DNA of 53,066 nucleotides from sequence record DRR723986_22395; one strand, given 5' to 3'. Shown in pieces: positions 38,973 to 52,235 of the stretch (its first letter is position 1; the number at the start of each line of letters is the position of its first letter). Below the pieces are notes generated by a model, which made no database searches, was not told the origin of the DNA, and saw only the letters and a program-made list of their open reading frames with translations. The translations under genes and the position numbers were made by a program.

Positions 38973-39594
38973 TCTTAAAATAATCGAAAATTACTTCAGG
39001 GCCTGTCACATGTACAGCCTGAATACCTACTTTTTTAGCACCTTCCACGTTGGCAATTAAATCATCAAAAAACACCACACGGTCTCCCGATGTTCCTAAG
39101 TCCACCAGCATCTTTTCATAGATTTCTGCAGAAGGTTTAGCTAGTCCCATTTCATGACTTAAAAACACCCAATCAAAAATTGGATCAAAATTTTGTAGGC
39201 TATGATCATTCTGTAAAATTCTATTTACAGCATTAATATGGATCAAATTTGTATTGCTTAATACACCAACCTGAAATTTTTCTCTCAATTTTAAAATTAA
39301 TTCAAGCCTTTCTGAAGGAATTTTTAGCAGTAAACTGTTCCACAATTCATCTACTTTTTCATCCTTCCACGCCTGATTAAAATACGCTTTTACAGCTTGC
39401 CGAAACTCAGCCGAATTGATTCTACCTACCTCATAATCCTTGTGAAAATCAGTTAGATAAAACCCCTCTACTTTGTGATGGAACTCAGAAGAAACTTCCT
39501 CTTTGATACGATTTATTGCCTTCTGATAATCTATATCTATGATGACATTTCCTAAATCAAAAATCAAAAAGTCTGCATCAGGTGCATTTTTCAT
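38965..39594 (-). CDS. HAD-superfamily phosphatase (YihX-like)
   Basis: Start moved to ATG 39594. IFDLGNV, LSNTN, KP, FFDD..NVEGA. Confidence 0.88.
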   Translation of the reverse strand: MKNAPDADFLIFDLGNVIIDIDYQKAINRIKEEVSSEFHHKVEGFYLTDFHKDYEVGRINSAEFRQAVKAYFNQAWKDEKVDELWNSLLLKIPSERLELILKLREKFQVGVLSNTNLIHINAVNRILQNDHSLQNFDPIFDWVFLSHEMGLAKPSAEIYEKMLVDLGTSGDRVVFFDDLIANVEGAKKVGIQAVHVTGPEVIFDYFKNV

Positions 39595-39691
39595 TCTAAA
39601 TATGGGTTGTGTATTTGCATTCAAATATGTAACATTGCACACCCAAAACCAAGGTTTAAGGCGAATACGAGCCAAAACTGAAGTTAATTTC

Positions 39692-39765
39692 GGGCCTATA
39701 GCTCATTCGGTTAGAGCAACTGACTCATAATCAGTAGGTGCCTGGTTCGATCCCAGGTGGGCCCA
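39692..39765 (+). tRNA. tRNA with CAT anticodon, most likely tRNA-Ile2 (lysidine-modified)
   Basis: GGGCCTA/TGGGCCC acceptor stem, CTGA-CTCATAA-TCAG anticodon arm, GGTTCGA T-loop. C4/C5 acceptor pairs favour Ile2 over Met. CCA is not encoded. Confidence 0.92.
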
Positions 39766-39766
39766 C

Positions 39767-39798
39767 AAGCCATTCGTTAATTCGGATGGCTTTTTTTT
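39767..39798 (+). terminator. tRNA terminator
   Basis: AAGCCATTCG/CGGATGGCTT stem with a T8 run. Confidence 0.8.
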
Positions 39799-40166
39799 AT
39801 CTATAGCCATAAGTTGCTGCTAGATACTTTTAGCACTACACTTCATAATTTCTATACTGGGATTAATCAAGATATACCTGGATCAGGGATTCTTACTCAT
39901 AATCAACTCTTCGGTGCCAGCCATCGTTTTACAGCTAAAATTTCAGATTTGGAGCTATTTCTATTACTAGGCGCTGGTTTATCTGCTCATGCAAGCAGAA
40001 TGTTTTTGAGCACCAAAAAAAATCTAAAGCACGAAGTTTATTAAAGAGCTAAAGGAAAAAATGAATTAGACAATGTTCTTTTCGAATGATCCAATCAATC
40101 GATAATTTCATTTCTATAAAGGATCTTGGACCAATCGATTTTGAATTTACAAGTGTTCAAAACAAC

Positions 40167-40226
40167 TACAGACTTGGAACCAAAATCCTGAAGTCCTTTT
40201 CAGGTGATTACAATCCCAAGTCTGTA
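40167..40226. repeat. Branched inverted repeat downstream of cotH-like gene
   Basis: Perfect 11-bp TACAGACTTGG/CCAAGTCTGTA arms enclosing CCTGAA/TTCAGG and GATTACAATC. Confidence 0.6.
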
Positions 40227-40262
40227 CTAATAAATTTTTAAGTTAGTTTACAACCAACAAGA

Positions 40263-41660
40263 TTAATTCCCTAAATAGGCTTTTACTGCTGCTGCACGTT
40301 GAGCAGCATGTGATTTTAGTGTGCTTACTGCTGATTGAAAATCAGCACTGCTATTTAAGAAAGTATATCCGCGTGTTTCCGTGGTCGCATAGGGTTCAAT
40401 CAGCGTAGCATATTCGGTGTAAACAGCCTGTATTTCACTCGTGCTAAACACGCCATTGATTACCTCTTCCACATAGGTATCATACTTCCCTTTATAGACA
40501 GGATCGGCATACAAATACCCTATAAGTGGCCACTGAGTGGAAGAAAGACCTGAAAAATTCAAAGGTAAAGATCCTCCCATGTTTCCAGTTTGTAAGGCCT
40601 CGTTATTGTCCCAAGGAATCCAGTTCAGAAGTTTTGTGTCTGGATTATTATACAAGAAGTAATTGTGAGTCATCCTTCCATAGGTATCCCAGTTTTGGAT
40701 GACCGTATTCGCTGCTAGGTACTTTAAGAATACATCTGTATCCAAAACAGTCTCCAAATTGGCTCTCCACGCAGCAGGGTCACTAGTCCGGTTGCTGGCA
40801 TGCAAAGCAGAGAATAGATTCTGAATATCGGACCAATCAGCATCATCCTCATTGGTTTCTTTCACAAAAACAGATTCAGTAAATGAGCCTTCAGCAAAAC
40901 TTGCCCCAATACCATCCGGCTGATACAGATTCCCATCATTATCCGAAAACTGCGTGTCAATCAGCGTATCATCCACTTCTTCGACCATGGTGTATAATCC
41001 AAAATAAACTGGACCACTACCATTATCTACATAAACTCTATAAAATGCAGTATGCGAACTAGCTAATCCTGCATTTCTAAAAATATCCGCAGCCACCTTT
41101 TCACGAAGCATGGATTTATCATTGAAGTTATTTTTAAGACTTAGTTTTTTGAATCCGAAAAAGCGCTGATTTTTAATCTGCGGGTAGTTGTCTTCAAATT
41201 CATCAAAATCAAGTTTGAAAGACAGTTTCATATTCCCAGACTTCCAAGTTGAGGATAGACTGGAATTGCCTTTAAATCGAAGGCCTACTCGATACCATTC
41301 CTGCCCTTCGTAAAAAACCTCTGCTGGAACAAAAACAGGATTCTCCTCCGCAAATGAAGCTCCTCCGCCAGATCCTCCTCCTACTCCAAAGTTCCCATAT
41401 AGACTAGTCATATCGTCCAGCATTGCTTGCCAGCGGGCGGATGTAACTACAATGTCTATTCGCTTTACGACATTATCCTCAAAGACCTCTGCAAAATTTG
41501 GATCCGCATCGTTGCTGTGGGTTGCCACTCCCCAGTCTGTCGGCTCAAAATCTCCATCTGAATAATCTTCTTCAATAATTTCCTCCGGGGTAATGCTATC
41601 TACTTCACTGCAGGCTATGAAGAGGGAAAGTAAAATGATGGATAAGAGTAATTTTTTCAT
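40263..41660 (-). CDS. CotH kinase-family lipoprotein
   Basis: Lipobox FIAC, VGLRFKGNSS, KLSFKLDFD, LREKVA, GLYTMVEEVD, NWDTY...HNYFLY, WIPWDNN. Confidence 0.9.
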   Translation of the reverse strand: MKKLLLSIILLSLFIACSEVDSITPEEIIEEDYSDGDFEPTDWGVATHSNDADPNFAEVFEDNVVKRIDIVVTSARWQAMLDDMTSLYGNFGVGGGSGGGASFAEENPVFVPAEVFYEGQEWYRVGLRFKGNSSLSSTWKSGNMKLSFKLDFDEFEDNYPQIKNQRFFGFKKLSLKNNFNDKSMLREKVAADIFRNAGLASSHTAFYRVYVDNGSGPVYFGLYTMVEEVDDTLIDTQFSDNDGNLYQPDGIGASFAEGSFTESVFVKETNEDDADWSDIQNLFSALHASNRTSDPAAWRANLETVLDTDVFLKYLAANTVIQNWDTYGRMTHNYFLYNNPDTKLLNWIPWDNNEALQTGNMGGSLPLNFSGLSSTQWPLIGYLYADPVYKGKYDTYVEEVINGVFSTSEIQAVYTEYATLIEPYATTETRGYTFLNSSADFQSAVSTLKSHAAQRAAAVKAYLGN

Positions 41661-41798
41661 AAGTGATAGTTTTTAATGGTGATTTGAAGTTGGTTCAATT
41701 ATATACCTGTGATTTTTTGAAAACGTCCTAGGATGTATGACCTTACTTAAAACTCAGGCTTGACTATTCACCTTTTGGAGTTTCTATGAATGTGGAAA

Positions 41799-41936
41799 TT
41801 AGGATTGAGACAGGATAGATGCCTTTTGAAAATTAGGTTTACCTATATTCTTATGGTAAATAAACCCTCCCATCACGGCGGTGATTATTACCATTGCGAC
41901 CAAAAAAGGGACAACTAGTAACTTAAACTTTTTCAT
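41799..41936 (-). CDS. Small 45-aa single-TM peptide (not in ORF track)
   Basis: MKKFKLLVVPFLVAMVIITAVMGGFIYHKNIGKPNFQKASILSQS. The ATG lies 20 nt after an ECF motif copy. Confidence 0.5.
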   Translation of the reverse strand: MKKFKLLVVPFLVAMVIITAVMGGFIYHKNIGKPNFQKASILSQS

Positions 41937-41956
41937 ATCTCGGGGTTTAGAGATAT

Positions 41957-41983
41957 AGACGCGGCTTCTGAGTGAATCCCTCG
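41957..41983 (-). promoter_or_regulatory. ECF promoter motif CGAGGGA-N15-CGTCT, copy A
   Basis: CGAGGGA TTCACTCAGAAGCCG CGTCT, one of three exact copies. Confidence 0.8.
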
Positions 41984-42302
41984 GGTTGGTTACTTTTTTT
42001 CTTGTTTAAGTGAAAAAATTGAGGGGAAGGAATTTATTGTAAGATTATCCGCAATGAGGCCAGAAACCTTAGACTAATTTCTTATCTAAATGAAAAACAG
42101 ATACTTAGGCTACACTTAGTACGAGTGACCGGCGATCGAAATGTCCTCAATTCTTAAGTTTGACAAATCTCACATTGCTTTTGCCTCCTTACTAGTAGAA
42201 AGCGTATATACCTATTTATCTTAGTTCTGATCTCAATGAATAGTTTGCTACAAAAAACTGATGCCGCCTCATCAGTGAATGGACTCTCATCGTCTGTAAT
42301 AG

Positions 42303-42333
42303 AAAAGAGGCTGTCTCTCTATGAAACAGCCTC
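42303..42333 (-). terminator. Terminator of sigma/anti-sigma/Spy operon
   Basis: GAGGCTGTTTC...GAGACAGCCTC followed by TTTT on the minus strand. Confidence 0.7.
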
Positions 42334-42367
42334 CTATCGCTTTATAATATCTAAAAATACCGATTAC

Positions 42368-42838
42368 TTATCTATTCCTAGGCGGCATATTAGGTTGTTT
42401 TTGATCTGAGACCAAAACCCTCAACACATCTGCTATAATCTCATCAAAGTGTGCAAGCTGACTTTCATTACAAAGCGATTTCAAATCTTTAAAATGTTGG
42501 TATGTAACCGTGATTTTGTCTCCTTCAAGGCTTTCTATTTGTGCTAAAACCTCCTTCTCACCAGCTGAATCATTTGTTTTCAGATTATCGAAATAGTCCT
42601 TCACCATTTTCTTTTGCTCAGCTTCCAGCTTTGCCACCTTCTTGCTATGATCTAGTGCTAATTCAAAATATTTCTTCTTTTGTTCCTCATTCAGGTCTAG
42701 CTTTTCTGAGATTTTCTTCATCAATCCGCCCTCATTTGGAGGAGGCATTTTCGGTCCTCGCAACATCATGAAGATCAATACTCCATTAATCACCAGCATC
42801 AGGATCAATCCTATCTTATAAAGGTTTGTATTATTCAT
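42368..42838 (-). CDS. Membrane-anchored Spy/CpxP-like (periplasmic heavy-metal-sensor-like) protein
   Basis: N-terminal TM (LVING), PPP linker, LDLNEEQ and LCNESQ LTxxQ-like repeats. Confidence 0.75.
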   Translation of the reverse strand: MNNTNLYKIGLILMLVINGVLIFMMLRGPKMPPPNEGGLMKKISEKLDLNEEQKKKYFELALDHSKKVAKLEAEQKKMVKDYFDNLKTNDSAGEKEVLAQIESLEGDKITVTYQHFKDLKSLCNESQLAHFDEIIADVLRVLVSDQKQPNMPPRNR

Positions 42839-43109
42839 TGCTGTAAATATTAAAATCAGAAATTAAAACCGAATAAGAATCGTTAGAAATTGAAGTTGCA
42901 GTAGTTTGATCATAGTTCAAGATAAAAAACAGATTACCTCCTACAATCGCAGTGACGCAAGCCGCCACAGCAAGCCACCTCAGAGGAGTTACCTGCTTTT
43001 GCTTTTGTAACTTAATCTGTTGCTCGATTTTACGAAATGCACCAGCAGGAACTTCAGAGCGATCTGCTCCCTTCATGCTTGACAATATTTCATCTTTCCA
43101 GTTTTCCAT
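42831..43109 (-). CDS. Putative single-TM anti-sigma factor
   Basis: Directly after the ECF gene. Short N-terminal domain followed by WLAVAACVTAIVGGN TM. Confidence 0.7.
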   Translation of the reverse strand: MENWKDEILSSMKGADRSEVPAGAFRKIEQQIKLQKQKQVTPLRWLAVAACVTAIVGGNLFFILNYDQTTATSISNDSYSVLISDFNIYSNE

Positions 43110-43115
43110 TTAGTA

Positions 43116-43718
43116 TTAAGACGGATTTTTTGGTGAATTCCCTCGCTCGGGAAAATGTTTTTCTAAAGCAACTTTTAAATTAGCCTTTGCCCGCTGCAAC
43201 AGAGACTCCACGGCTTTGCGTGTAGTCTGCAAAATATCGGCTACCTCCTGCTGTGAAAGATCTTCAATTTGGGTAAGGATAAATACCGTTTTCTGCTTCT
43301 CCGACAATTCGTCTATGACGCGAAAAAGTATCCTGGCGTTCTCTTGGTTTTCCAATTTGACGCCAGGATGTATAAAGTCAACAGACTCGTACTTGATCTC
43401 AGCAGAATCTTTCTTATAGAGGGAAGAAAATATACCGAATCGCTTTGTGCTGTTCTTTTTCCTAAGAAAATCCAAGGCCTTGTTTACAGAAATCCTATAA
43501 ATCCAAGTACTCACAGAAGAGTCAGCTCGAAATGTCTTTGCTGTATTATAAACTGTCATAAAAACATCCTGAAGCAATTCTTCAGCATCCTCTGCATTTT
43601 TCGTATAGCTGAGAAGCGTATTATAAACTTTGGGAGAATAGTGGTCATAAAGCATTTTGAAAGCCAAATCATTGCCTTCAATTAGTTGCCGGATCCACAA
43701 ACTATCCTCTCGTGTCAT
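43116..43718 (-). CDS. RNA polymerase ECF-type sigma-70 factor
   Basis: DAEELLQDVF, STWIYRISVN, LSEKQKTVFIL..IEDLSQQEVADIL...AVESLLQRAK. Confidence 0.95.
   Translation of the reverse strand: MTREDSLWIRQLIEGNDLAFKMLYDHYSPKVYNTLLSYTKNAEDAEELLQDVFMTVYNTAKTFRADSSVSTWIYRISVNKALDFLRKKNSTKRFGIFSSLYKKDSAEIKYESVDFIHPGVKLENQENARILFRVIDELSEKQKTVFILTQIEDLSQQEVADILQTTRKAVESLLQRAKANLKVALEKHFPERGNSPKNPS
43119..43145 (-). promoter_or_regulatory. ECF promoter motif, copy B, inside last codons of sigma gene
   Basis: CGAGGGA ATTCACCAAAAAATC CGTCT, 9 nt before the anti-sigma ATG. Confidence 0.8.
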
Positions 43719-43757
43719 TCTTTTGATTTACTTGAAAACAAAGTGTTCAAAATCTGA

Positions 43758-44552
43758 TCACTTATAATTGACCAATATATCAGCAATTTTTTGAAGATCT
43801 GGCTCTGAGATCTCTGTAACCGGAGCCAACGGGAAAATTTGTTGACCAGGACGGGAGATAAATGCAGCTCTCCAATTCGCCCACATCGCACCGGCAACAT
43901 CCCAACCATGTGCGGCTATGAGCATACATTCTTCAGGTTTTACACCCACTTTTTCAGCAGCCCAAGTGTAGGTCTCTGAAAAGGGCTTGAATTTCCCTAC
44001 ATCTTCCACACTCAGTCTTTCGTCGAAGAATTCCAACAAACCGGCATATTCAAATTGCTTTTTTACGCCTTCATTGGAAGAATTAGTAAAGGACACCAAC
44101 TTGTATCCAGCGGCTTTTAATTGACCCAAAGCAGCTTTGACCTCTGGATGTGCAGGCAAAGAACTGATAGATTTGCCAATGGTCTCTCTTGCATCAGCTT
44201 CAGAAATAGCTATTCCGTTGTTTGCGGCAACCATTTGCAAGGCAGCAGCTCCCACATAACCAAAATGCTCGTATTGCCCGCCTGCAGAAACTACAAGAGA
44301 ATACTGAAGCATGGTAGTAAACCAAAGCGGCATCAAATCCTCTCTCCCACCAAGTGCTGCACTCACCTGCTTTTTCATCGCAGTAAGATCAAGGAGTGTT
44401 TCGTTTACATCAAAAAACAAAACCTTTGGTCGAGTGGCATAGGTTAATATGGTATTTTCGGTTGAGTTTGTCATAGCAAAATTTGGTAAAATCATTCCTC
44501 CAGCCCCTACTATTCCTATATTTTTAATAAAAGCCCTTCTTGTGTCAAACAT
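43758..44552 (-). CDS. L-2-haloacid dehalogenase (HAD type II) with twin-arginine signal
   Basis: TRRAFIK Tat motif, FFDVNETLLD, TNS, FKP, AAHGWDVAGA. Confidence 0.88.
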   Translation of the reverse strand: MFDTRRAFIKNIGIVGAGGMILPNFAMTNSTENTILTYATRPKVLFFDVNETLLDLTAMKKQVSAALGGREDLMPLWFTTMLQYSLVVSAGGQYEHFGYVGAAALQMVAANNGIAISEADARETIGKSISSLPAHPEVKAALGQLKAAGYKLVSFTNSSNEGVKKQFEYAGLLEFFDERLSVEDVGKFKPFSETYTWAAEKVGVKPEECMLIAAHGWDVAGAMWANWRAAFISRPGQQIFPLAPVTEISEPDLQKIADILVNYK

Positions 44553-44979
44553 GTGTTGATTTTTTTGTTGGTGATGATTTGTATAAGTATAGGTTAAAGA
44601 AAACTAGAATTAAGTAAGCAATTGGTATTAAGGGAGGCTTAATCCCCAAAGGCAAAACTGCAGCAGGAACATTTGGATGAAGGTGCACATAACTAGCCAC
44701 CAACATCATGAGAATGACTGTCATATTTGCCAGGTAAAAGGTAGTTTCTCTCATCCTTAATTTTAATTCATTGCCATAAAATGCCAGATAAATTAAAACC
44801 AATCCTACTGTAAGTTGGCTAAATTTGACCAAAAACTGCATCTGATCTGGAAAAGGGATAGCACTTAAAACCAATTGCTGATTGACCAAAGTTTTGAAAG
44901 GCTCCATAAACTTACCCACTCCTGGCAATAGCACAATTACCCCCAAAATACCACTTAAAATTCTAACTGATTTCTTCAT
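44545..44979 (-). CDS. DoxX-like membrane protein
   Basis: Four hydrophobic segments, GKF...P...Q/E...G pattern, ASYVH. Confidence 0.65.
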   Translation of the reverse strand: MKKSVRILSGILGVIVLLPGVGKFMEPFKTLVNQQLVLSAIPFPDQMQFLVKFSQLTVGLVLIYLAFYGNELKLRMRETTFYLANMTVILMMLVASYVHLHPNVPAAVLPLGIKPPLIPIAYLILVFFNLYLYKSSPTKKSTHV

Positions 44980-44996
44980 TGATAGGTCTTAATGAA

Positions 44997-45026
44997 ACAA
45001 GAACAAATCCGAAAATTTGCTCTTGT
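44997..45026 (-). other. 12-bp intercistronic hairpin (attenuator or mRNA stabiliser)
   Basis: Minus strand ACAAGAGCAAAT-TTTCGG-ATTTGTTCTTGT (one G-U pair) with a weak T tail. Confidence 0.55.
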
Positions 45027-45036
45027 CCTAATGTGA

Positions 45037-45597
45037 TTAATTAGCTGTTTCAGGGTTCCAAGCGTACTTTTCAAATGGTTTATCCACAGGTGTTTCAGCA
45101 AGGTGATTTGTATAATTACTGATTATTTTCTGAGATAAGCCAAGTATTATCTCAAGCAAGTGGCGCTCGCCATAACCTGCAGCGTAGAATGCTGCAACCT
45201 CCTCATCTAATAGATTACCTCGCTTGCGAACCATCGCCAAAGTTGTTTCGTGCAGCACCTGAAGCTTCGAGTTTGGCAAAGCCGTCCCTTCTCTTAGAGC
45301 TTCGGTAATTGCGTCATCCACTTTCATCATTTTCGCTATTCCCGTATGTGCCGGAACACAATAATGACACTCATGCTCCACATTAATTGTTTGCCACACT
45401 ACGGTTAATTCCTCGTTATTAAATGAGGAATTGACGAAAAGTTCATGAATTTTTTGATAGGCTTCCAATAGGCCCGGAGCTCCTGCTAGTACCCCGTAAA
45501 GACCTGGAATGTATCCATTCTTTTTTTGGGAATTTTCTAAAAACACCTTGCTCTCTTGAGGTGCTGAAACTAAATCGTGAATCGTTAATTTACTCAT
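45037..45597 (-). CDS. Carboxymuconolactone decarboxylase / AhpD-like protein
   Basis: HECHYCVPAH CxxC..H motif, SNYTNH. Confidence 0.88.
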   Translation of the reverse strand: MSKLTIHDLVSAPQESKVFLENSQKKNGYIPGLYGVLAGAPGLLEAYQKIHELFVNSSFNNEELTVVWQTINVEHECHYCVPAHTGIAKMMKVDDAITEALREGTALPNSKLQVLHETTLAMVRKRGNLLDEEVAAFYAAGYGERHLLEIILGLSQKIISNYTNHLAETPVDKPFEKYAWNPETAN

Positions 45598-45616
45598 AGT
45601 AAGTTGGTTTAGTTAA

Positions 45617-45642
45617 AATATCTAAACGAATGTTTAGATATT
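45617..45642. promoter_or_regulatory. TetR operator 1 (palindrome)
   Basis: AATATCTAAAC-GAAT-GTTTAGATATT with perfect 11-bp arms, 19 nt upstream of the AhpD-like gene. Confidence 0.8.
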
Positions 45643-45659
45643 AGGCAAATAAATTATTG

Positions 45660-46223
45660 CTATAGAATTTTAAATATGTTTTCAATAAAAACTGACAATT
45701 GATCTTTCCTAAAGACCCTTGAAGCTGACCCTAGCCCATATAGAGAGATAATTAGATAATCAGCATACTCCTCAATTTTACTCCTATTCAAGCCTGCTTC
45801 CTGACCAAGGTTATTCACAAACAACTCTTTGATCTCTACAATAAAATGTTGAAGCTGCATTAAGATCTCCGGATCTGCATCCTTTCCCAGTTCATTGGAA
45901 GTATTGGTAACTAGGCAACCTTTGCAAGACTCATTTTCTTTGGAAAACTCGAGAAAAGCATAGAAATATTCCTTTATACCCTGTATCCCATTATTGGAAG
46001 ATTGAAGCACCGTAGTAATGACCGAAAGCTTCTTTTTATAGCATTTAATACTTTCCAGAAACAGGCCATTTTTACTTCCAAAACTCGAGTAAATGGAAAA
46101 CTTATTGATCCCCATTTCCTTTTCAAGCATCTGCATAGAAGTAGTCTCATAGCCATTTCTCCAGAAAAGGCTCATCGCTTTTTCAATTACTTCCTCTTCG
46201 CTATAATTCTTACTTCTTGCCAT
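45660..46223 (-). CDS. TetR/AcrR regulator (NemR/ComR-like)
   Basis: Start moved to ATG 46223 (MARSKNY). FWRNGYETTSM..L..MGI...SIYSSFGSK HTH, CKGCLVTN. Confidence 0.92.
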   Translation of the reverse strand: MARSKNYSEEEVIEKAMSLFWRNGYETTSMQMLEKEMGINKFSIYSSFGSKNGLFLESIKCYKKKLSVITTVLQSSNNGIQGIKEYFYAFLEFSKENESCKGCLVTNTSNELGKDADPEILMQLQHFIVEIKELFVNNLGQEAGLNRSKIEEYADYLIISLYGLGSASRVFRKDQLSVFIENIFKIL

Positions 46224-46240
46224 TTTAATGAATAAGTACA

Positions 46241-46261
46241 CAAACCTAACCAATCGTTTAG
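46241..46261 (-). promoter_or_regulatory. TetR operator 2 overlapping -7 promoter TAGGTTTG
   Basis: Minus strand CTAAACGATTGGTTAG (14/16 match to the operator-1 core CTAAACGAATGTTTAG) overlaps an exact TAnnTTTG. Confidence 0.75.
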
Positions 46262-46397
46262 ATTAAAGCAATTAATCCCGGAATATTTAAACGGTATTGT
46301 TCAATCTTGCAAGGACACTGTATTGAAAAATTGAGTCTCACCTTTATGAAAACTAGCGTAGTCATCGATGATATCATACTCCTACAGTAATGGTAAG

Positions 46398-46429
46398 AAA
46401 AAAGCTGCCTCTTAAATGAGGCAGCTTTT
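46398..46429 (-). terminator. Terminator of YHYH operon
   Basis: AAAAGCTGCCTC/GAGGCAGCTTTT stem with T run. Confidence 0.8.
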
Positions 46430-46450
46430 CAATAAACCCACAGCCAATTA

Positions 46451-46780
46451 TTAGTCCTTTCTTGGAGGGCCTTGTCTTTCCTGCATTTTCTTAAACTTTG
46501 CAGCTTGATCTTCAGTGAGCGTCTTAAGGAGGGCATCATTCATCTCTTTGCGAGTCTCTCCTGCTTTCTTTCTATCCTTCTCTACGGAACTGTATTTCTT
46601 CATTATGGTCTCCCACTCTTTCACTTGCTCCTCACTCAACTTAAGTTCAGTTGTAGCTTTTTTAAGCATTTCCTCCTGAGAAGGTGGGCCCTGACGCTCC
46701 TGACCTTGACGAGGTTGACCTTGGGCAAAGCCAAAAATGGTGAATCCCATCATACAAATTCCTAATACTAACTTTTTCAT
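46451..46780 (-). CDS. Small secreted Spy/LTxxQ-like protein
   Basis: Signal peptide (FGFAQ), QGPP ends, LKLSEEQ and LTEDQ repeats. Confidence 0.75.
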   Translation of the reverse strand: MKKLVLGICMMGFTIFGFAQGQPRQGQERQGPPSQEEMLKKATTELKLSEEQVKEWETIMKKYSSVEKDRKKAGETRKEMNDALLKTLTEDQAAKFKKMQERQGPPRKD

Positions 46781-46804
46781 TTTTTTTTGGTTTAATTTGA
46801 AATT

Positions 46805-47482
46805 CTACGTGTTTTTAAGTGTTTTAATATCTGATATGAGCTGAAGTACAGATGTTTTATTTAGCCCATTATAAATCCCTCGGATATGACGATCCCTATC
46901 GATTAGGAGAAAATTTTCCGTATGAAGAAATTCATCTGGATCCTTTAACAAACCGAGATCCTCCTCCACGAAATATTGATTTCTGGCGAGTTCGTAGATC
47001 TGCTCTCTTGCTCCCGTAAGCAAATGCCATTTTCCTGATTCTACTCCATGCTCATCAGCATATTCTTTCAAAATAGGCACCTGATCAAACTCAGGTGTAA
47101 CGGAATGTGAAAGTAAAGTCACCTGATCGTCATGTTTAAAAGCTTCCTGTACCAAGGCCATATTTGCAGTCATTTTAGGGCAGATTCCCGGACAAGTCGT
47201 GAAAAAGAAATCCACCACGAATATCTTTCCTTTCAAATCTTGATCTGAGATAGTATCCCCAAGCTGGTTCTGAAAATTAAATGCTGGTATCTGATGAAAA
47301 TCACTTGGTAAATCATCTTCACTTTCGTACCACACTGGTGTGAATGTGGCATCCTGATAATATGGGAGTTGCTCTACACTAGTAGTTTCAGCAAACGCTG
47401 TGATTCCTGCTTGATTTTCACTGGTCTTTTCTGCACAGGCAGCTAGGAGTATAACCAGAAATAGGTTAAGATATCTAGTCAT
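46805..47482 (-). CDS. SCO1/SenC-family copper chaperone lipoprotein
   Basis: Start moved to ATG 47482. Lipobox LAAC, FFFTTCPGICP (CxxxC), WHLLTG, FLHTENF His ligand. Confidence 0.92.
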   Translation of the reverse strand: MTRYLNLFLVILLAACAEKTSENQAGITAFAETTSVEQLPYYQDATFTPVWYESEDDLPSDFHQIPAFNFQNQLGDTISDQDLKGKIFVVDFFFTTCPGICPKMTANMALVQEAFKHDDQVTLLSHSVTPEFDQVPILKEYADEHGVESGKWHLLTGAREQIYELARNQYFVEEDLGLLKDPDEFLHTENFLLIDRDRHIRGIYNGLNKTSVLQLISDIKTLKNT

Positions 47483-48077
47483 TGTAAACCACCGTTTCAT
47501 CGTCTAATTCGAAGCAAAGATTGGCACGTTTTAGACCATAAATACGTCCATTCTTCGCCTGATAATTCACGTAGATTTTACCATTTTCTCTCCAGGCTCG
47601 TTGCATACCCACCTCTTTTCCATCCACTAAATTCATTTCTTTAAACTTGACCCCCGAACTATACCACTGCTGTTGAAGTCCATGAGATTTTCCTGCGAGA
47701 AAGTTACCTGAGGAGCGCAGGTTTTTATTGCTCCACCATGATTTTACAGAACCATTTAATTTATTGTCATTGTAATGAGCTTCAAATGCTATACTGCCGT
47801 CTTCAAACCATTTCTGAAGTAATCCATTTCTCTTTCCATTGACATATTCTGTACGCTTAGCCAATACCCCATTAGCATAATAGCTCATTCCAGCTCCAGA
47901 GAAAGGTATCTTACCTAGATACATCAAACCTTCATTAGGGTGAAGAATTAGCTTTTTCTCGTGAACTTCCAGCGCTTCAACTTCAGCAAAATCTTGATCC
48001 AAACTACCGTCTTTGCTCATAAATTGCTGGTAGGTAAGTAGCATCGTCAAGAATAAGAATAGATTAATTAATTGCAT
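47475..48077 (-). CDS. MORN-variant repeat protein (YwqK-like)
   Basis: N-terminal hydrophobic segment, repeated Y/W..NG...Y..GK.NG units. Confidence 0.85.
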   Translation of the reverse strand: MQLINLFLFLTMLLTYQQFMSKDGSLDQDFAEVEALEVHEKKLILHPNEGLMYLGKIPFSGAGMSYYANGVLAKRTEYVNGKRNGLLQKWFEDGSIAFEAHYNDNKLNGSVKSWWSNKNLRSSGNFLAGKSHGLQQQWYSSGVKFKEMNLVDGKEVGMQRAWRENGKIYVNYQAKNGRIYGLKRANLCFELDDETVVYND

Positions 48078-48873
48078 TGGGAGAACCTTGATAATCGCCT
48101 GGGAATAAGATATAATACTTATTTAGGTACAATTCATTTTGAACATGGTAGTGATATTCTTCCTGGGTGTTATACTTAGTGATAGAAGTATGTCCACCTG
48201 ACGCATCTAGATCGGCTGGGTAGCTATCCGTAGACGTACATTTCCTCCCATAAAGAAGAAAGCCATCTGAGATAATTCCTATCAAATTATCATCATCATC
48301 TGAGAATGAAACTGGTTCTAAATGATAATGGTAACTCTGAGGTCCTGTGTGAGCACCATTGAAATCAAGGGAACCGGCAGCTCCGTCTAATGGGACATTT
48401 GGACCTTCTTTATCATTATAAATCACAGACCCACTCACTGCAATACCTATCGCTCCTAATCCAGTGGATGTACTAGAGAACGATTTGGTAGGTATTGCTG
48501 GCACTCTTAAAGTATAGCTTCCATTAAAGTCATCTATGTTGCCTGGAGCCATAAAGAAAAAAGAAGTCACTGTAGGCTCGACAAAAAGTGGATGATCAGT
48601 AGCCGCTGCTGGGGTAATGTGACCGTTATTGTTCCTTTCATTTGTACTTGACCAATAAGGAGAAGTGTGATTTGGCAATCCATTGGTTTCGATGATTACC
48701 TCATTTCCATCCAGCATGATTGTAGTATTACTTGAATCAAATGCGGAGAAAGCTAGGGGTAATTCAGTCAGTGTCGCCTCTGGCTCTAAATCACTGTCAT
48801 CATCGTTGGCACAGGAGATCCAAGTGACCGCCACAAGCAATAAAGGGAAAAAGCTAAGTTTGAATAGTCGCAT
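48064..48873 (-). CDS. YHYH-domain lipoprotein
   Basis: Lipobox WISC, NGLPNH, GAIGIAVSG, GAHTGPQSYHYH, DGFLLYG, LDASGGH...EYHYH. Confidence 0.9.
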   Translation of the reverse strand: MRLFKLSFFPLLLVAVTWISCANDDDSDLEPEATLTELPLAFSAFDSSNTTIMLDGNEVIIETNGLPNHTSPYWSSTNERNNNGHITPAAATDHPLFVEPTVTSFFFMAPGNIDDFNGSYTLRVPAIPTKSFSSTSTGLGAIGIAVSGSVIYNDKEGPNVPLDGAAGSLDFNGAHTGPQSYHYHLEPVSFSDDDDNLIGIISDGFLLYGRKCTSTDSYPADLDASGGHTSITKYNTQEEYHYHVQNELYLNKYYILFPGDYQGSPNAIN

Positions 48874-48899
48874 TGCTATAGTTGTTTTGTTATCACTAT

Positions 48900-48926
48900 A
48901 GACGCGGATTCCTTATCGATCCCTCG
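48900..48926 (-). promoter_or_regulatory. ECF promoter motif, copy C
   Basis: CGAGGGA TCGATAAGGAATCCG CGTCT, 26 nt before the YHYH ATG. Confidence 0.8.
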
Positions 48927-49642
48927 TTGTCCTAATAGATTTTTTTTTATGACAAAAGTCCCCCCACTCATTTTCAGCAGCTCGCGCTAAATCAATTAGT
49001 TGATTCTCAATACAAAAATCTATAATGACCTATCACTTACCCGTCAACTATACATCAGCAATTCTTTTTTGAGGCTCTCCTCATGGGTAAAAAAATAGCG
49101 CTTTAGAACGTATAAAATCCAGCAATTGATCATTAACATCCACATTTGCTATCCCAACCAGTTTTTTTAAATTATTTATCTATTTCTAAAATCTAAACTC
49201 ATGTTTCAACTCGTAAATACTTGAGTTATCCCAAGCAAATTCCCTTTAGCAGAAAGAGGGAATCAGCTATCTATGCCCAAAAGAAATCGTAAATAAATTC
49301 CCCGAATTGAGACATTTACAAGAACAAAATACTGATTATTCAATCCGACTAAATCCGATTAATATTTTAACCACTGATTTACAGATACTTATATTAATTT
49401 CAAATTCCCTAGAACACAGGCCTGAAGTTTGAGCGTAGAACACACTGTAGATCGAATAAACAAAGTCGTTAGCATATTGGCCTATTAATTCTTAAAAATA
49501 CGTCACAAGCATTGACAGCAAATTCATACTAAAAGACAATTTAAACCTAACCTAAAAAGGGGTGTTGGACTTTTCAACATCTCATTATGAAGAGTAAAAG
49601 CTTAATCACCCAAATTTTGCAATTGCTCGCAAATTTTAACTA

Positions 49643-50113
49643 ATGAAATACCCTCAAGATTTTCAACTATCCTATCCCAAATTGGGATCTGGAGTGGACT
49701 TTATTGACAGTTACGAACAGTTAATCTCCATTTTACGCGATTTAGAAAAATACGAATTAGAATTTTCGCTCGACAATTCATTGCCTTTGATTGAAGGAGA
49801 TTTGAACAATGTTCTGAAAGTTTTAAAAAAATTTATTTCTGAAACAATTTCCCAATTCAAAAGTAAACGAGGTACGGCTTTCGTAGTTTTTAAGAAGGAT
49901 TGTGATTCCTCATTTATCTCCTATCTAGTAGAAAACAAATTCTTTGGTGACAATGGAAATGTAGAATCTAATCTCGTTGATACGATCACCAAATTTCATT
50001 ATGCCATCTGTAAAGAACCACTTATGGACAATGAGAGCATAAAAACTGTTTCCCTTCAGACTCAAAACGAAGGATGGTTTGAAAATGATTCTAGAAAGAA
50101 TCTTTTAAACTAG
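49643..50113 (+). CDS. Hypothetical protein
   Basis: 156-aa ATG ORF followed by a terminator. No clear family. Confidence 0.6.
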   Translation: MKYPQDFQLSYPKLGSGVDFIDSYEQLISILRDLEKYELEFSLDNSLPLIEGDLNNVLKVLKKFISETISQFKSKRGTAFVVFKKDCDSSFISYLVENKFFGDNGNVESNLVDTITKFHYAICKEPLMDNESIKTVSLQTQNEGWFENDSRKNLLN

Positions 50114-50172
50114 GGTCCAGGTTCTTATCTGAATGCCTTTCCAGCGAATTGGATCTCAGCATTTTCGAAAAC

Positions 50173-50208
50173 AAAAAAAAGGTCAGCTAATACTAACTGA
50201 CTTTTTTT
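50173..50208. terminator. Bidirectional terminator
   Basis: A8-GGTCAG...CTGACT-T run between convergent genes. Confidence 0.65.
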
Positions 50209-50279
50209 GGTAATAAAATCATTCTATTTACAACTACCCAATAAGTACTTTTACTAAACCAGCCTATAATTCTTCCTCA

Positions 50280-52235
50280 TCAATATTCAATTATTTTAAA
50301 CTCAGTCCTTCTGTTTTCTTGATGCTGCTCATCTGTACATGTTACATTGTCACTACAAGAATTAAGGAGTTTTTCCTCGCCAAATCCAATAGCTGTAAGC
50401 CTGCTCGAATCAATTCCTGATTCTATCAAGTACGCTATAGCAGCCTTAGCTCTATTGTCTGATAGCTTAAGATTATAAGCGTTTGTTCCTCGAGAATCTG
50501 TGTGCGAATACAATTCAATCTTTATAGTTGGGTTTTCTTTGAGAATTTTTATCAGCTTGTTCAGCTCTGGCTTCGCGTCCTCACGGATATTCCATTTGTC
50601 AAAATCATAATAAATATTTTCAAGTGTATATGTCTTCCCAACTTGAATTTGCTCTAGATAGATATTTCTTACGAGGACGGAATCTTGGATTTCAGTAGCC
50701 TCCGGAATCATCACATCTCCTGTGCTTCCAGTAAGATAGCCTGTCTTTTTCCCTTCCAAATGAACTGTCTGATCGAACTTGACTTTAAACCTAAAGGACC
50801 CATCTTCCTCAGACACATACGTATTCTCTAAATGATCTTGCTCATTATAAAGTGAGACCACAGCATCGGGAAGATTCATCCCGCTCTCTTTATCGATCAC
50901 CTGTCCTTTGATTACTAAATCCTTTTTCACAATCAAATCAGCGAAATAAAGATCATCCAAGCCTCTTCCTCCTGCCCTATCAGATGAAAAAACAGCCTTA
51001 TTATCATTCCCTAGCACCAGCGATAATCCAAAATCATCCCGGTTTGAATTAATAGGACTTCCTAGATTCTCGGGCTCAGCGTAATCACCATTTACAAAGG
51101 CAGCTTTAAAAACATCTAATCCACCGAGCCCTGCATGTCCAGAGCTAGAAAAGTATAACACCCCATTCTGATCAACAAAAGGGGTTCTCTCATCTCCATT
51201 GGTATTGATTACAGAACCAAGGTTCACTGGTCTGAGCCATACTCCATTATCCCACTCAGTGTAATACAAATCAGCTTTTCCTCTGCCTCCAGGCATATCA
51301 GAGGAAAAATACAATCTGGACTGAGACGGATCATAAAAAGGATCAGAGACAGAATATGAGAAAGGATCATTAAATGAAAACGGAGTAAAGGAATCCAAAG
51401 TCACATCTCCCGTATCCAGGGCGAAATATAACTCAGGAAATAAGGTGTAGTTCCTAGCAGTTCCGGAATCCGATTTTTTGAATTTTTGTGCTTGGGTTAA
51501 CGTCAGAAATAAATTTTCTCCTACCTCATACATAGGCCCCACATGCAAATCACTTTCAAGGTTCTCGGTCTGCTTTGGATCTCCTAGAGCTGAATTCTCC
51601 TCATCATCCCAGTCCAACTCATACATTTTCAAAAAGCCATTTCCAGTCCAACCATACACATCGCTTTTCAACGCATTATTTGGATCAACTCTGGCTTTCT
51701 TTGAAATCAATCTATCAGAAGTAAAATGAAGTACTGAGTTTCCAGTAATCATGGGGCCAAACTCTGAAAAGGGTGAATTTGCATTAGAAATTGGCACAAC
51801 TGCAGCCTCGGAGGACTTATTTAGGAAGGATTTACCTCCTAGTGCAGTTTTCCAAATCAACTCCAAGTCTGACCTACTTTTAGATGGGTCAAGTTTCGCC
51901 AATACATCTGCAGCCTCAGTATACTTGGAATTTGCAATTAATGACTCGGCATAAGGCTTTAAATCCTCTGTTTCAAGTTCATCATCCCTGTCTAGTCTAG
52001 TGTACCACTCTTCAGCTTGTTCGAAATCCCTAGTTTTAAAATAAGCCTGAGCCAACCCCCGGGCTGTCTCAGGCAAGGGTGATCTATTCCAACTTTCCAA
52101 ATACTTATCAATTCCCACGGAATAGTTTAGATTTTCCGCCTGCTTTTTCCCCTCCAGATAACTTTTATAAGCAGCTGGTTTACAACTCACAAAACATAAA
52201 ATCAGGAAACAGAATATGTAAATGACTTTGTTCAT
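50280..52235 (-). CDS. PorE-like OmpA-family lipoprotein (TPR, PD40 beta-propeller, CRD, OmpA_C)
   Basis: Lipobox FVSC, LYFSSD/NLGS.IN repeats, NIYYDFDK, HTDSRG..YN..LS..RA, NRRTEF. Confidence 0.9.
   Translation of the reverse strand: MNKVIYIFCFLILCFVSCKPAAYKSYLEGKKQAENLNYSVGIDKYLESWNRSPLPETARGLAQAYFKTRDFEQAEEWYTRLDRDDELETEDLKPYAESLIANSKYTEAADVLAKLDPSKSRSDLELIWKTALGGKSFLNKSSEAAVVPISNANSPFSEFGPMITGNSVLHFTSDRLISKKARVDPNNALKSDVYGWTGNGFLKMYELDWDDEENSALGDPKQTENLESDLHVGPMYEVGENLFLTLTQAQKFKKSDSGTARNYTLFPELYFALDTGDVTLDSFTPFSFNDPFSYSVSDPFYDPSQSRLYFSSDMPGGRGKADLYYTEWDNGVWLRPVNLGSVINTNGDERTPFVDQNGVLYFSSSGHAGLGGLDVFKAAFVNGDYAEPENLGSPINSNRDDFGLSLVLGNDNKAVFSSDRAGGRGLDDLYFADLIVKKDLVIKGQVIDKESGMNLPDAVVSLYNEQDHLENTYVSEEDGSFRFKVKFDQTVHLEGKKTGYLTGSTGDVMIPEATEIQDSVLVRNIYLEQIQVGKTYTLENIYYDFDKWNIREDAKPELNKLIKILKENPTIKIELYSHTDSRGTNAYNLKLSDNRAKAAIAYLIESGIDSSRLTAIGFGEEKLLNSCSDNVTCTDEQHQENRRTEFKIIEY

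Follow-up and report, generated by a model that had tools for sequence, protein, structure and literature searches.

The stretch of DNA described here (53,066 nucleotides (nt) from sequence record DRR723986_22395, of a marine Algoriphagus; hereafter the window) contains, between positions 40167 and 48926, a set of genes that appears to be controlled by an extracytoplasmic function (ECF) sigma factor encoded among them, through three predicted promoters that have the same pair of short boxes. All the units of this regulon are on the minus strand (Table 1). The first predicted promoter (P1) precedes an operon for a YHYH-family lipoprotein, a MORN_2-repeat protein, an SCO1/SenC lipoprotein and a small Spy-like protein; the second (P2) precedes the genes for a putative anti-sigma factor (P0002) and for a membrane-anchored protein that resembles the sensor CnrX (P0003); and the third (P3) precedes a gene for a CotH-family lipoprotein. 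The products considered as output all have signal- or lipoprotein-type N-termini, as read from their sequences. The original prediction for this locus, made from the letters alone, had named most of these genes, and its YHYH, MORN, SCO1, ECF sigma and CotH assignments are upheld by Pfam; the anti-sigma factor, however, matches no Pfam family, and the Spy-like proteins reach theirs weakly or below threshold. Each unit ends in a hairpin, as had also been predicted, and a U tract follows the hairpin in the YHYH operon and in the anti-sigma/P0003 unit.

Table 1. Features of the predicted regulon and of the block that interrupts it, with window coordinates (aa, amino acids; ORF, open reading frame).
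Feature	Position	Strand	Evidence or remark
Predicted promoter P1 (CGAGGGA-N15-CGTCT)	48900..48926	-	26 nt 5' of YHYH ATG
YHYH-family lipoprotein, 269 aa	48064..48873	-	Pfam PF14240, 41.3 bits (cut-off 25)
MORN_2-repeat protein, 200 aa, hydrophobic N-terminus	47475..48077	-	Pfam PF07661, 47 bits
SCO1/SenC lipoprotein (copper chaperone or thiol-disulfide oxidoreductase)	46805..47500	-	Pfam PF02630, 91.7 bits
Small secreted Spy/LTXXQ-like protein, 109 aa	46451..46780	-	LTXXQ E 1.5e-4, Metal_resist E 1.2e-3, both below cut-off
Intrinsic terminator of YHYH operon	46397..46430	-	13-bp stem and U tract, -24.7 kcal/mol, z -6.3
Intervening motif-free block: TetR, AhpD-like peroxidase-related protein, 144-aa membrane protein, HAD type II hydrolase	43758..46223	-	Family matches
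ECF sigma factor, 200 aa (P0001)	43116..43718	-	Sigma70_r2 67.6 bits, Sigma70_r4_2 53.1 bits, TIGR02937 108.5 bits (cut-off 42.9)
Predicted promoter P2	43119..43145	-	Inside last 9 codons of sigma ORF; 9 nt 5' of anti-sigma ATG
Putative one-helix anti-sigma factor, 92 aa (P0002)	42831..43109	-	Position +1 after sigma; no Pfam family
Membrane-anchored CnrX/Spy-like periplasmic protein, 156 aa (P0003), proposed sensor	42368..42838	-	Position +2; weak Metal_resist match
Decayed copy of YHYH promoter	42354..42382	-	3' end of P0003 gene; aligns with P1 and L085 promoter
Intrinsic terminator of anti-sigma/P0003 unit	42302..42338	-	13-bp stem, -22.7 kcal/mol, z -5.9
Predicted promoter P3	41957..41983	-	20 nt 5' of 45-aa ORF; 296 nt 5' of CotH
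45-aa ORF, hydrophobic helix (doubtful gene)	41799..41936	-	No family match
CotH-family lipoprotein, 465 aa	40263..41660	-	Pfam PF08757, 249.3 bits (cut-off 23.8), profile positions 1-320 of 322
Long hairpin 3' of CotH	40165..40228	-	-28.8 kcal/mol, z -5.0

The motif that defines the regulon, CGAGGGA-N15-CGTCT, has exactly three matches in the window, all on the minus strand, against a mean of 0.01 in shuffled sequences, none of which (0/100) contained three or more. The claim that it occurs three times with identical 7-nt and 5-nt boxes and a 15-nt spacer, 9–26 nt before an ATG, therefore holds (the distances read as 26, 9 and 20 nt for P1, P2 and P3). Since the three spacers are mutually unrelated, and the two boxes are all that the sites have in common, they are not copies of one repeat. 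P2 is not an intergenic site: its 27 nt are the final nine codons of the sigma ORF, with the stop codon directly after them (...GAG CGA GGG AAT TCA CCA AAA AAT CCG TCT TAA).

The nearest comparison genome (G001, 5 Mb) has 74% of the window's sampled 31-letter words in common with it and encodes an identical sigma factor. In this genome the exact motif is found at three sites, all of them at the regulon locus (0+1 in the reversed control), in agreement with the idea of a self-contained local set. No further members emerged from a relaxed scan (GAGGGA-N14–16-CGTC; 9 matches vs 15 in the control) or from a scan with a 15.5-base extended consensus and up to two mismatches (7 vs 8), in which two of the seven matches were P1 and P3 and the other five correspond to the background level. 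At the sensitivity of these scans, the predicted regulon is limited to its locus.

The conservation of the motif in orthologous loci, which the original prediction had proposed as a check, was evaluated in 20 related loci (323,844 nt) whose sigma factors are 47–100% identical to that of the window. One of them, from the record of Algoriphagus winogradskyi DSM 15360 (L068), carries an identical sigma factor, and the other 19 range from 47 to 87%; the sources are assigned to Algoriphagus, Fulvivirga, Marinoscillum, Ekhidna, Roseivirgaceae, Cyclobacteriaceae, Lewinella, Saprospiraceae and a Flavobacterium metagenome-assembled genome (MAG). The pattern GAGGG-N16-CGTC matched 33 times, against none for the reversed control. 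A co-oriented gene lies downstream of every one of the 33 sites, be it the anti-sigma gene, the YHYH-MORN-SCO1(-Spy) operon, CotH or, in some cases, an EF-hand lipoprotein gene; 32 sites are on the sigma strand, and the remaining one precedes a YHYH operon that is divergent. Conservation extends beyond the positions fixed by the search: a C before GAGGG (31/32), an A after it (29/32) and then a T (23/32), a purine before CGTC (30/32), a T and an A after CGTC, and an A 10 nt past CGTC (30/32), which is the probable transcription start. The motif thus stands at the same genes across several families despite unrelated spacers and rearranged gene order.

The individual sites show how far this conservation extends. 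At the sigma 3' end the strict motif is present in 12 of the 20 loci and, with one change in the -35 box, in four more (CGGGGGA in L074; CGAAGGA in L076 and L084, the latter also with a TGTC -10 box; CGAGTGA in L077), which gives 16/20; the site is doubtful in L080, and none was found in L083, L086 and L087. Upstream of YHYH the strict motif is found in 12 of the 15 loci that have this gene, with variants in L083 and L084 and a truncated locus in L086, and it precedes CotH in the four loci whose CotH is at least 70% identical (L068, L074, L075, L078). The gene content is likewise recurrent: MORN follows YHYH in related loci too, and the small Spy-like gene lies 3' of SCO1 in L068, L070, L071 and L072, and 3' of MORN in L081, a locus in which SCO1 was not seen. 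Additional genes stand beside the motif in some lineages. An extra target in L074:12889-14992, L075:11516-13782 and L076:13456-15489 comprises a second YHYH paralogue (of approximately 318 aa), an unannotated secreted protein of approximately 213 aa and a small EF-hand lipoprotein, and in L078:7767-8129 and L080:9351-9717 the motif heads an EF-hand lipoprotein gene alone, in L080 just upstream of sigma. One of the records, titled 'MAG: Planctomycetota bacterium' (L071), has an Algoriphagus-like cassette with the same promoters and a sigma factor 74% identical; its label may reflect mis-binning. It also carries, 2 kb downstream, a second YHYH-MORN-SCO1 paralogue set without the motif.

Five loci (L069–L071, L081, L085) also carry a promoter of this kind in the tail of the P0003 gene, where the -35 box is read in another frame: CGA-GGG-A (Arg-Gly-x) in the sigma tail, and CCG-AGG-GAT (Pro-Arg-Asp) before the stop codon in the P0003 tail. 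In some species the sigma stop codon lies inside the spacer (..RGI*, ..RGV*, ..RGNK*), and elsewhere the ORF crosses the -10 box, which is read as Thr/Pro-Ser. Because the boxes are kept in different reading frames and with shifting sigma stops, the conservation, judged from these alignments, acts on DNA and not on protein.

The position of P2 has consequences for the way in which the system would be wired. In the window there is no motif upstream of the sigma gene, and none was found directly upstream of it in the 19 of the 20 related loci that have sequence there, the sole nearby motif being the one that heads the EF-hand gene of L080. The regions upstream of sigma are unrelated to one another among the related loci, and in L086 the sigma gene directly follows SCO1. 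Because P2 lies within the sigma 3' end and nothing comparable precedes the gene, the sigma factor appears not to be autoregulated, whereas its putative anti-sigma factor appears to be under its control. In Escherichia coli, a sigmaE-dependent promoter inside rpoE drives rseABC. The likeness is that an ECF-dependent promoter within the sigma coding region would raise the expression of the anti-sigma factor, and the difference is that rpoE has its own autoregulated promoter, rpoE P6 (consulted part of PMC8103513), whereas no site was found upstream of sigma here. The same source describes positive autoregulation by way of an upstream promoter as typical of ECFs and no longer defining (PMC8103513); no such promoter was found for this sigma gene, the site being located at the sigma 3' end instead.

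In 13 of 14 orthologues the ATG of the anti-sigma gene follows CGTC at a distance of 9 nt; in the remaining one, L068, and in the window the distance is 10 nt. ECF-dependent transcription usually starts some 7–10 nt after the -10 core. Because this spacing is fixed at 9–10 nt and a conserved A is found at the usual start distance, the P2 transcript would be leaderless or nearly so. As for the sigma gene itself, in the window it starts 39 nt after the end of the HAD gene and, because there is no hairpin in this gap, it may be co-transcribed in this lineage with the TetR/AhpD-like/membrane-protein/HAD block, which would be a TetR-controlled operon. A Bacteroidota housekeeping promoter upstream of sigma was looked for by eye only, with no clear match.

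A promoter placed after the sigma gene may be a general layout in this clade, because distant homologues carry another string at the same position. In other Cyclobacteriaceae genera, with sigma factors 35–49% identical, the conserved string is GCGCAAGTTT, then CATCTAA; in L016, L018, L025, L033 and L040 (35–46% identity) it reads (G)CGCAAGTTT, with CATCTAA or a similar sequence approximately 14 nt later. It is placed between the sigma stop codon and the gene for a one-helix protein of approximately 100 aa, often followed by a weak P0003 homologue, and may represent the promoter cognate to a sister group.

The three regulatory proteins can now be considered. P0001 has the features of an ECF (group IV) sigma factor, with the sigma2 and sigma4 domains only and approximately 200 aa, and its predicted promoter GAGGGA-N15-CGTC is bipartite, with a CGT-type -10 box and a fixed spacing, conserved at target genes; in the consulted literature, ECF promoters have a -35 box of 5–7 nt, a fixed spacer and a CGTC -10 (parts of PMC8103513 and of the PMC7826278 supplement). 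A one-helix protein is encoded at position +1 in 14 of the 20 related loci (tblastn). P0002 has approximately 42 cytoplasmic residues with the conserved pattern SLEG(I/M)ERAxxP...F.KIQQ, one transmembrane helix with an invariant Asn (N59), and a short periplasmic tail that ends in the conserved DFN(I/L)YxNE; seven of 14 orthologues match the NCBIfam 'anti-sigma factor' entry, weakly and below its cut-off. The neighbors of P0002 in an Atlas search are unnamed Bacteroidota clusters; DUF3619, the nearest one with a name (0.87), offers no more than a lead.

The P0003 family (19 sequences) is characterized by an N-terminal transmembrane helix and two LTXXQ-like motifs. Residues N18 (in the transmembrane helix), H64 and H115 are invariant, Cys123 is present in 15/19, and Pfam recognizes Metal_resist in 11 and LTXXQ in six of the orthologues. 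Because matching invariant Asn residues are found in both transmembrane helices, a pairing of P0002 and P0003 in the membrane is suggested. The AlphaFold2 model of P0003 (predicted local distance difference test (pLDDT) 84) is a helical hooked hairpin. In a Foldseek search with this model, ranks 1–10 were all CnrX (TM-score to target 0.69–0.76, E 0.013–0.05), with NccX next; taken together, the CnrX and NccX matches have E values of 0.013–0.07 and TM-scores to target of 0.60–0.76. An independent VIA search, run against representative structures, also placed CnrX first (Z 11.6 over 107/109 residues), then ZraP (Z 11.0 over 75 residues) and generic hairpins. Because the coverage extends over the full domain and two methods agree, CnrX is, at the level of the predicted model, the closest solved fold to P0003.

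In the Ni/Co-responsive systems of Cupriavidus metallidurans (CnrH/CnrY/CnrX and NccH/Y/X), the single-pass anti-sigma factor CnrY has approximately 95 aa and the sensor CnrX approximately 150 aa. The set described here resembles them in that a sigma factor is accompanied by a putative single-pass anti-sigma with a short cytoplasmic part and by an N-terminally anchored hairpin protein as candidate sensor, and the P0003 model has the fold that a CnrX-type, membrane-anchored periplasmic sensor would be expected to have. According to the part of PMC6851896 that was consulted, CnrX relays metal binding to CnrY, its ligands are His42, His46, Glu63 and His119, and the promoter cnrYp drives cnrYXH. 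Several differences are evident. The gene order is sigma-anti-sigma-sensor here and cnrYXH there; the sigma gene lacks a motif promoter of its own, in contrast to the cnrYXH operon driven by cnrYp (PMC6851896); P0003 has two invariant His in place of the four CnrX ligands (PMC6851896); no RND (resistance-nodulation-division) efflux operon is seen among the targets here, those of Cnr including a metal efflux system (cnrCBA, cnrT); and the phylum is Bacteroidota, not Pseudomonadota. P0002 has no detectable sequence similarity to solved anti-sigmas, and its topology and cytoplasmic part of approximately 42 residues would fit class II (CnrY-type).

The type of module (an ECF sigma factor, a one-helix anti-sigma at +1 and an LTXXQ or Metal_resist protein at +2) has already been catalogued, in Bacteroidetes and in other bacteria (PMC7826278). 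In the consulted part of PMC7826278, group ECF03 is mostly from Bacteroidetes and has at +1 a putative anti-sigma with one transmembrane helix, which matches no Pfam domain and whose extracytoplasmic part is conserved, with an LTXXQ protein at +2 in ECF03s10; in ECF111, ECF281 and ECF290 a heavy-metal-resistance protein (PF13801) is encoded close to the sigma gene, and ECF291 is CnrH. The genomic context of the window sigma factor matches the ECF03 description, whereas the predicted ECF03 promoter (TTAAACC and a TC-containing -10, derived from regions upstream of sigma) differs from GAGGGA...CGTCTA (PMC7826278). The examined part of the PMC7826278 supplement contains no GAGGG, AGGGA or CGAGG strings, no YHYH/CotH context and no Algoriphagus/Cyclobacteriaceae entries. 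The system had been put forward as undescribed: this stands for the regulon, the promoter and the wiring, of which full-text literature searches found no description, and does not stand for the module type (PMC7826278).

With regard to the output proteins, five His residues of the YHYH protein (H182, H184, H228, H241 and H243) are invariant in 14 sequences, distributed over two conserved YHYH motifs (Y181-H-Y-H184 and Y240-H-Y-H243) and a GGH. Its gene is the sole family member in G001, and an Atlas search with it returned YHYH clusters only. The consulted part of a preprint describes the family as being without metal or enzymatic characterization and as having a predicted 3-His metal site (10.64898/2026.10.18.759936). 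In SCO1, residues C103-x3-C107 and H193 are invariant in 12 orthologues, that is, the CxxxC motif and the distal His, which are the copper ligands, are intact. The locus SCO1 is the third paralogue in G001 and, because the other two adjoin genes for cytochrome c oxidase subunits III/IV with DUF420, and for a cytochrome c, it would be an accessory copy under ECF control.

Taken together, these observations lead to the following reading. The ECF sigma factor (43718–43116) would direct RNA polymerase to promoters formed by C-GAGGGAT (-35), 13 variable bases and R-CGTCTA (-10), with an A approximately 10 nt further on as the likely start. P1 would drive YHYH-MORN-SCO1-Spy, P2 the anti-sigma factor and the CnrX-like protein, and P3 CotH. 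Because P2 is inside the sigma 3' end and nothing comparable is found upstream, sigma synthesis would be independent of the signal, and activation would feed back only negatively, via extra anti-sigma and sensor, from an mRNA whose 5' end would coincide with the anti-sigma ATG or lie only a few bases from it. Following the logic of CnrH/CnrY/CnrX, the short anti-sigma would hold sigma at the membrane, and the CnrX-like P0003 would sense periplasmic metal, copper being the best guess, and release it. The output lipoproteins and periplasmic proteins (the His-rich YHYH protein, the accessory SCO1, the Spy-like chaperone and CotH) would then handle metal in the envelope.

A probability of roughly 55% is assigned to this explanation as a whole, that is, a sigma-driven regulon with three promoters, CnrYX-like metal sensing and an output of envelope metal handling. 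Its parts differ in strength. Confidence is strong that the regulon is real and conserved, with an unusual promoter placement; it is moderate for the CnrYX-like mechanism; and it is weak for periplasmic metal as the signal, with copper as first candidate and excess and shortage not distinguished. Several points weigh against the explanation. P0002 matches no Pfam family and no solved relative by sequence, and its anti-sigma role is deduced from position, topology and sub-threshold matches. The likeness of the P0003 model to CnrX is one of fold only, with a Z of 11.6 that falls in the range where helical hairpins often match by arrangement alone, and at most two of the four CnrX ligands have plausible counterparts; to judge by the ranges that align, H115 could be the equivalent of His119. 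The YHYH protein and P0003 have no significant match among PDB sequences, and in a sequence-profile search P0003 comes closest, among solved proteins, to Spy (E 0.024), in an alignment that includes both LTXXQ-like motifs; Spy is a chaperone and is not known as a metal sensor. As for the output, the predicted model of the YHYH protein has a pLDDT of 37, too low for a metal site to be read from it; no efflux pump or metal transporter was seen in the motif-bearing units (YHYH, MORN, SCO1, Spy-like, CotH, EF-hand); and neither the EF-hand proteins nor CotH suggest copper. Finally, that this particular sigma factor recognizes the motif is deduced from co-occurrence and position.

Some of these points lead to another possibility, in which the regulon and its wiring are the same and the signal is not metal. 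P0003 and the small Spy-like protein would be chaperones of the CpxP/Spy type that report unfolded or oxidized envelope proteins, SCO1 would act as a thiol-disulfide oxidoreductase, and the whole would be an envelope folding and redox stress response. P0003 has the helical hooked-hairpin fold and the two LTXXQ-like motifs of Spy/CpxP/ZraP; besides its sequence-profile match to Spy, the LTXXQ matches in six of 19 orthologues and the Cys123 present in 15 fit this notion, as do the second Spy-like gene within the regulon and the fact that SCO1 also matches the AhpC-TSA and Redoxin families. LTXXQ neighbors of ECF03 and ECF111 are, moreover, read as envelope-stress markers in the consulted part of PMC7826278. 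However, P0003 is anchored by an N-terminal membrane helix, like CnrX, and is encoded directly behind the anti-sigma gene, while Spy and CpxP are soluble, and the P0003 of the window matches these families below the Pfam cut-offs. The superposition on CnrX takes in all of its periplasmic domain (107 residues), compared with approximately 75 residues for ZraP and generic hairpins; its two His are invariant in 19/19, while the Cys is lost in four; and the output consists mostly of His-rich and copper-ligand proteins and not of proteases or foldases. Envelope stress as the signal is a serious alternative, though less likely than metal.

The preferred reading also depends on the pairing of motif and sigma factor, for which the distribution of both among genomes is informative. 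Among 61 Algoriphagus species, a sigma orthologue (E <= 1e-55) is found in five (G001, G131, G135, G166, G174), and a sixth genome (G122) also has the cassette, with a sigma copy cut by the end of the contig, so that only its 3' end is present. CGAGGGR-N15-CGTCT occurs in 12 of the 61 genomes, with 17 sites overall vs 19 control sites; clustered or homologous sites are found only in the six cassette-bearing genomes, and the other six motif-positive genomes have one site each, with no regulon gene nearby. YHYH homologues are present in 16 of the 61 species. A more divergent cassette, with a sigma factor of 49–53% identity together with a P0003 homologue (Spy2), YHYH, MORN and SCO1, is found in three of the additional genomes that were examined (G163, G123 and G160), and in the last two the sites at the sigma end and at the Spy2 end both read CGAAGGA-N15-CGTCT; in L084 the boxes are CGAAGGA...TGTCT and CAAAGGT...TGTCT. 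From these changes it follows that the boxes drift together with sigma. At the scale of the phylum (401 species, 179 genera), YHYH orthologues (E <= 1e-20) are found in 29 species and 23 genera; among 29 loci from the YHYH-positive genomes, 23 have the YHYH-MORN-SCO1 trio and 12 a sigma or P0003 homologue within 1.5 kb, and several carry motif variants (CAAGGGA, CGAGGGA or CGAAGGG, then CGTC or TGTC). In another class of the phylum (L170, L171, L173, L198), two tandem YHYH genes lie ahead of MORN and SCO1, each with its own variant (CAAGGGA...CGTCT, CGAGGGA...CGTCA).

The control of the three units by the local sigma factor, as originally predicted, is thus supported by phylogenetic footprinting and by the co-occurrence of motif and sigma across genomes. 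It could still be argued that the motif is real and is read by another ECF sigma factor or by a DNA-binding regulator, the local sigma merely adjoining its targets: the sigma-promoter pairing is a predicted one, the sigma gene has no such site upstream, and the search for sigma factors in G001 gave 36 candidate stretches at first look, so that other ECF-like genes may exist. Against this, in all the lineages examined the motif accompanies the orthologue of this sigma factor and is found at its 3' end; in the Algoriphagus sample the genomes with motif clusters are those with the orthologue; the boxes drift along with sigma divergence; and the geometry is that of ECF promoters as given in the consulted parts of PMC8103513 and PMC7826278. 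A different reader is accordingly held to be very unlikely.

A further observation concerns the history of the YHYH operon. In L085, whose sigma factor is 87% identical to that of the window, this operon lies downstream of P0003, with a promoter that overlaps the stop codon of P0003; in the window it is found instead upstream of the sigma block. P1 is plainly the L085 promoter, the spacer and leader of the two being near-identical, and a copy of the same sequence is recognizable at the 3' end of the window P0003 gene, where TAGGAA stands in place of GAGGGA in the -35 box and GGTATT in place of CGCGTC in the -10 region, followed by the terminator. On this alignment, the window retains a decayed YHYH promoter at the former position of the operon: the copy that drives genes kept its boxes and the copy without a downstream operon lost them. 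The notion that the three sites are remnants of a local duplication or small repeat, with no promoter function, can draw on the clear homology of P1 and the decayed copy, which indicates that the region was duplicated or rearranged, and is nevertheless dismissed as extremely improbable, given that the window sites have only their boxes in common, that boxes and not flanks are kept across families, that a gene in the same orientation follows each of the 33 sites, and that the sole copy without an operon has decayed.

The remaining features of the neighborhood complete the description. The 45-aa ORF after P3 recurs, among the 20 related loci, solely in the near-identical L068, and in L074 and L075 the promoter directly precedes CotH without such an ORF between them; that it is a real gene is doubtful. 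The block between the YHYH operon and the sigma gene, which also has homologues in L068 only, is not part of the regulon. A tRNA gene (39692–39765, plus strand; RF00005, 67.4 bits) is located approximately 400 nt past the terminal hairpin of the CotH unit, and a scan of positions 39000–50500 against Rfam gave, besides this tRNA, one sub-threshold overlap and nothing else. On the other side, the approximately 700 nt 5' of P1 (48927–49640) contain no ORF of at least 60 aa on either strand and no Rfam match.

Returning to the predicted regulon, its significance is, in the first place, that a concrete ECF regulon, with its predicted promoter, its sigma factor and a candidate anti-sigma factor and sensor, is outlined in a phylum in which almost no ECF sigma factor has been studied. 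Promoter prediction restricted to regions upstream of sigma operons would miss the layout described here, which combines an intragenic site in the 3' part of sigma, an apparent lack of sigma autoregulation and an anti-sigma ATG at a fixed distance of 9 nt from the -10 box, and the promoter and sigma factor could serve as an orthogonal switch for Bacteroidota. Proteins whose roles in Bacteroidota are unclear (YHYH, MORN_2 and secreted CotH) are linked to an accessory SCO1 and a CnrX-like sensor, which provides YHYH with its first functional context. Tentatively, and with less confidence than the regulon as such, the Bacteroidota-wide cassette might represent an unrecognized periplasmic pathway for copper or another transition metal, which senses and handles the metal and is composed of the sigma factor, a minimal anti-sigma factor from a family that is new, a sensor resembling CnrX, and YHYH-MORN-SCO1, in which YHYH would be a new envelope metalloprotein or metallochaperone that works with SCO1, and in which an intragenic promoter and a leaderless anti-sigma mRNA would provide negative feedback only.

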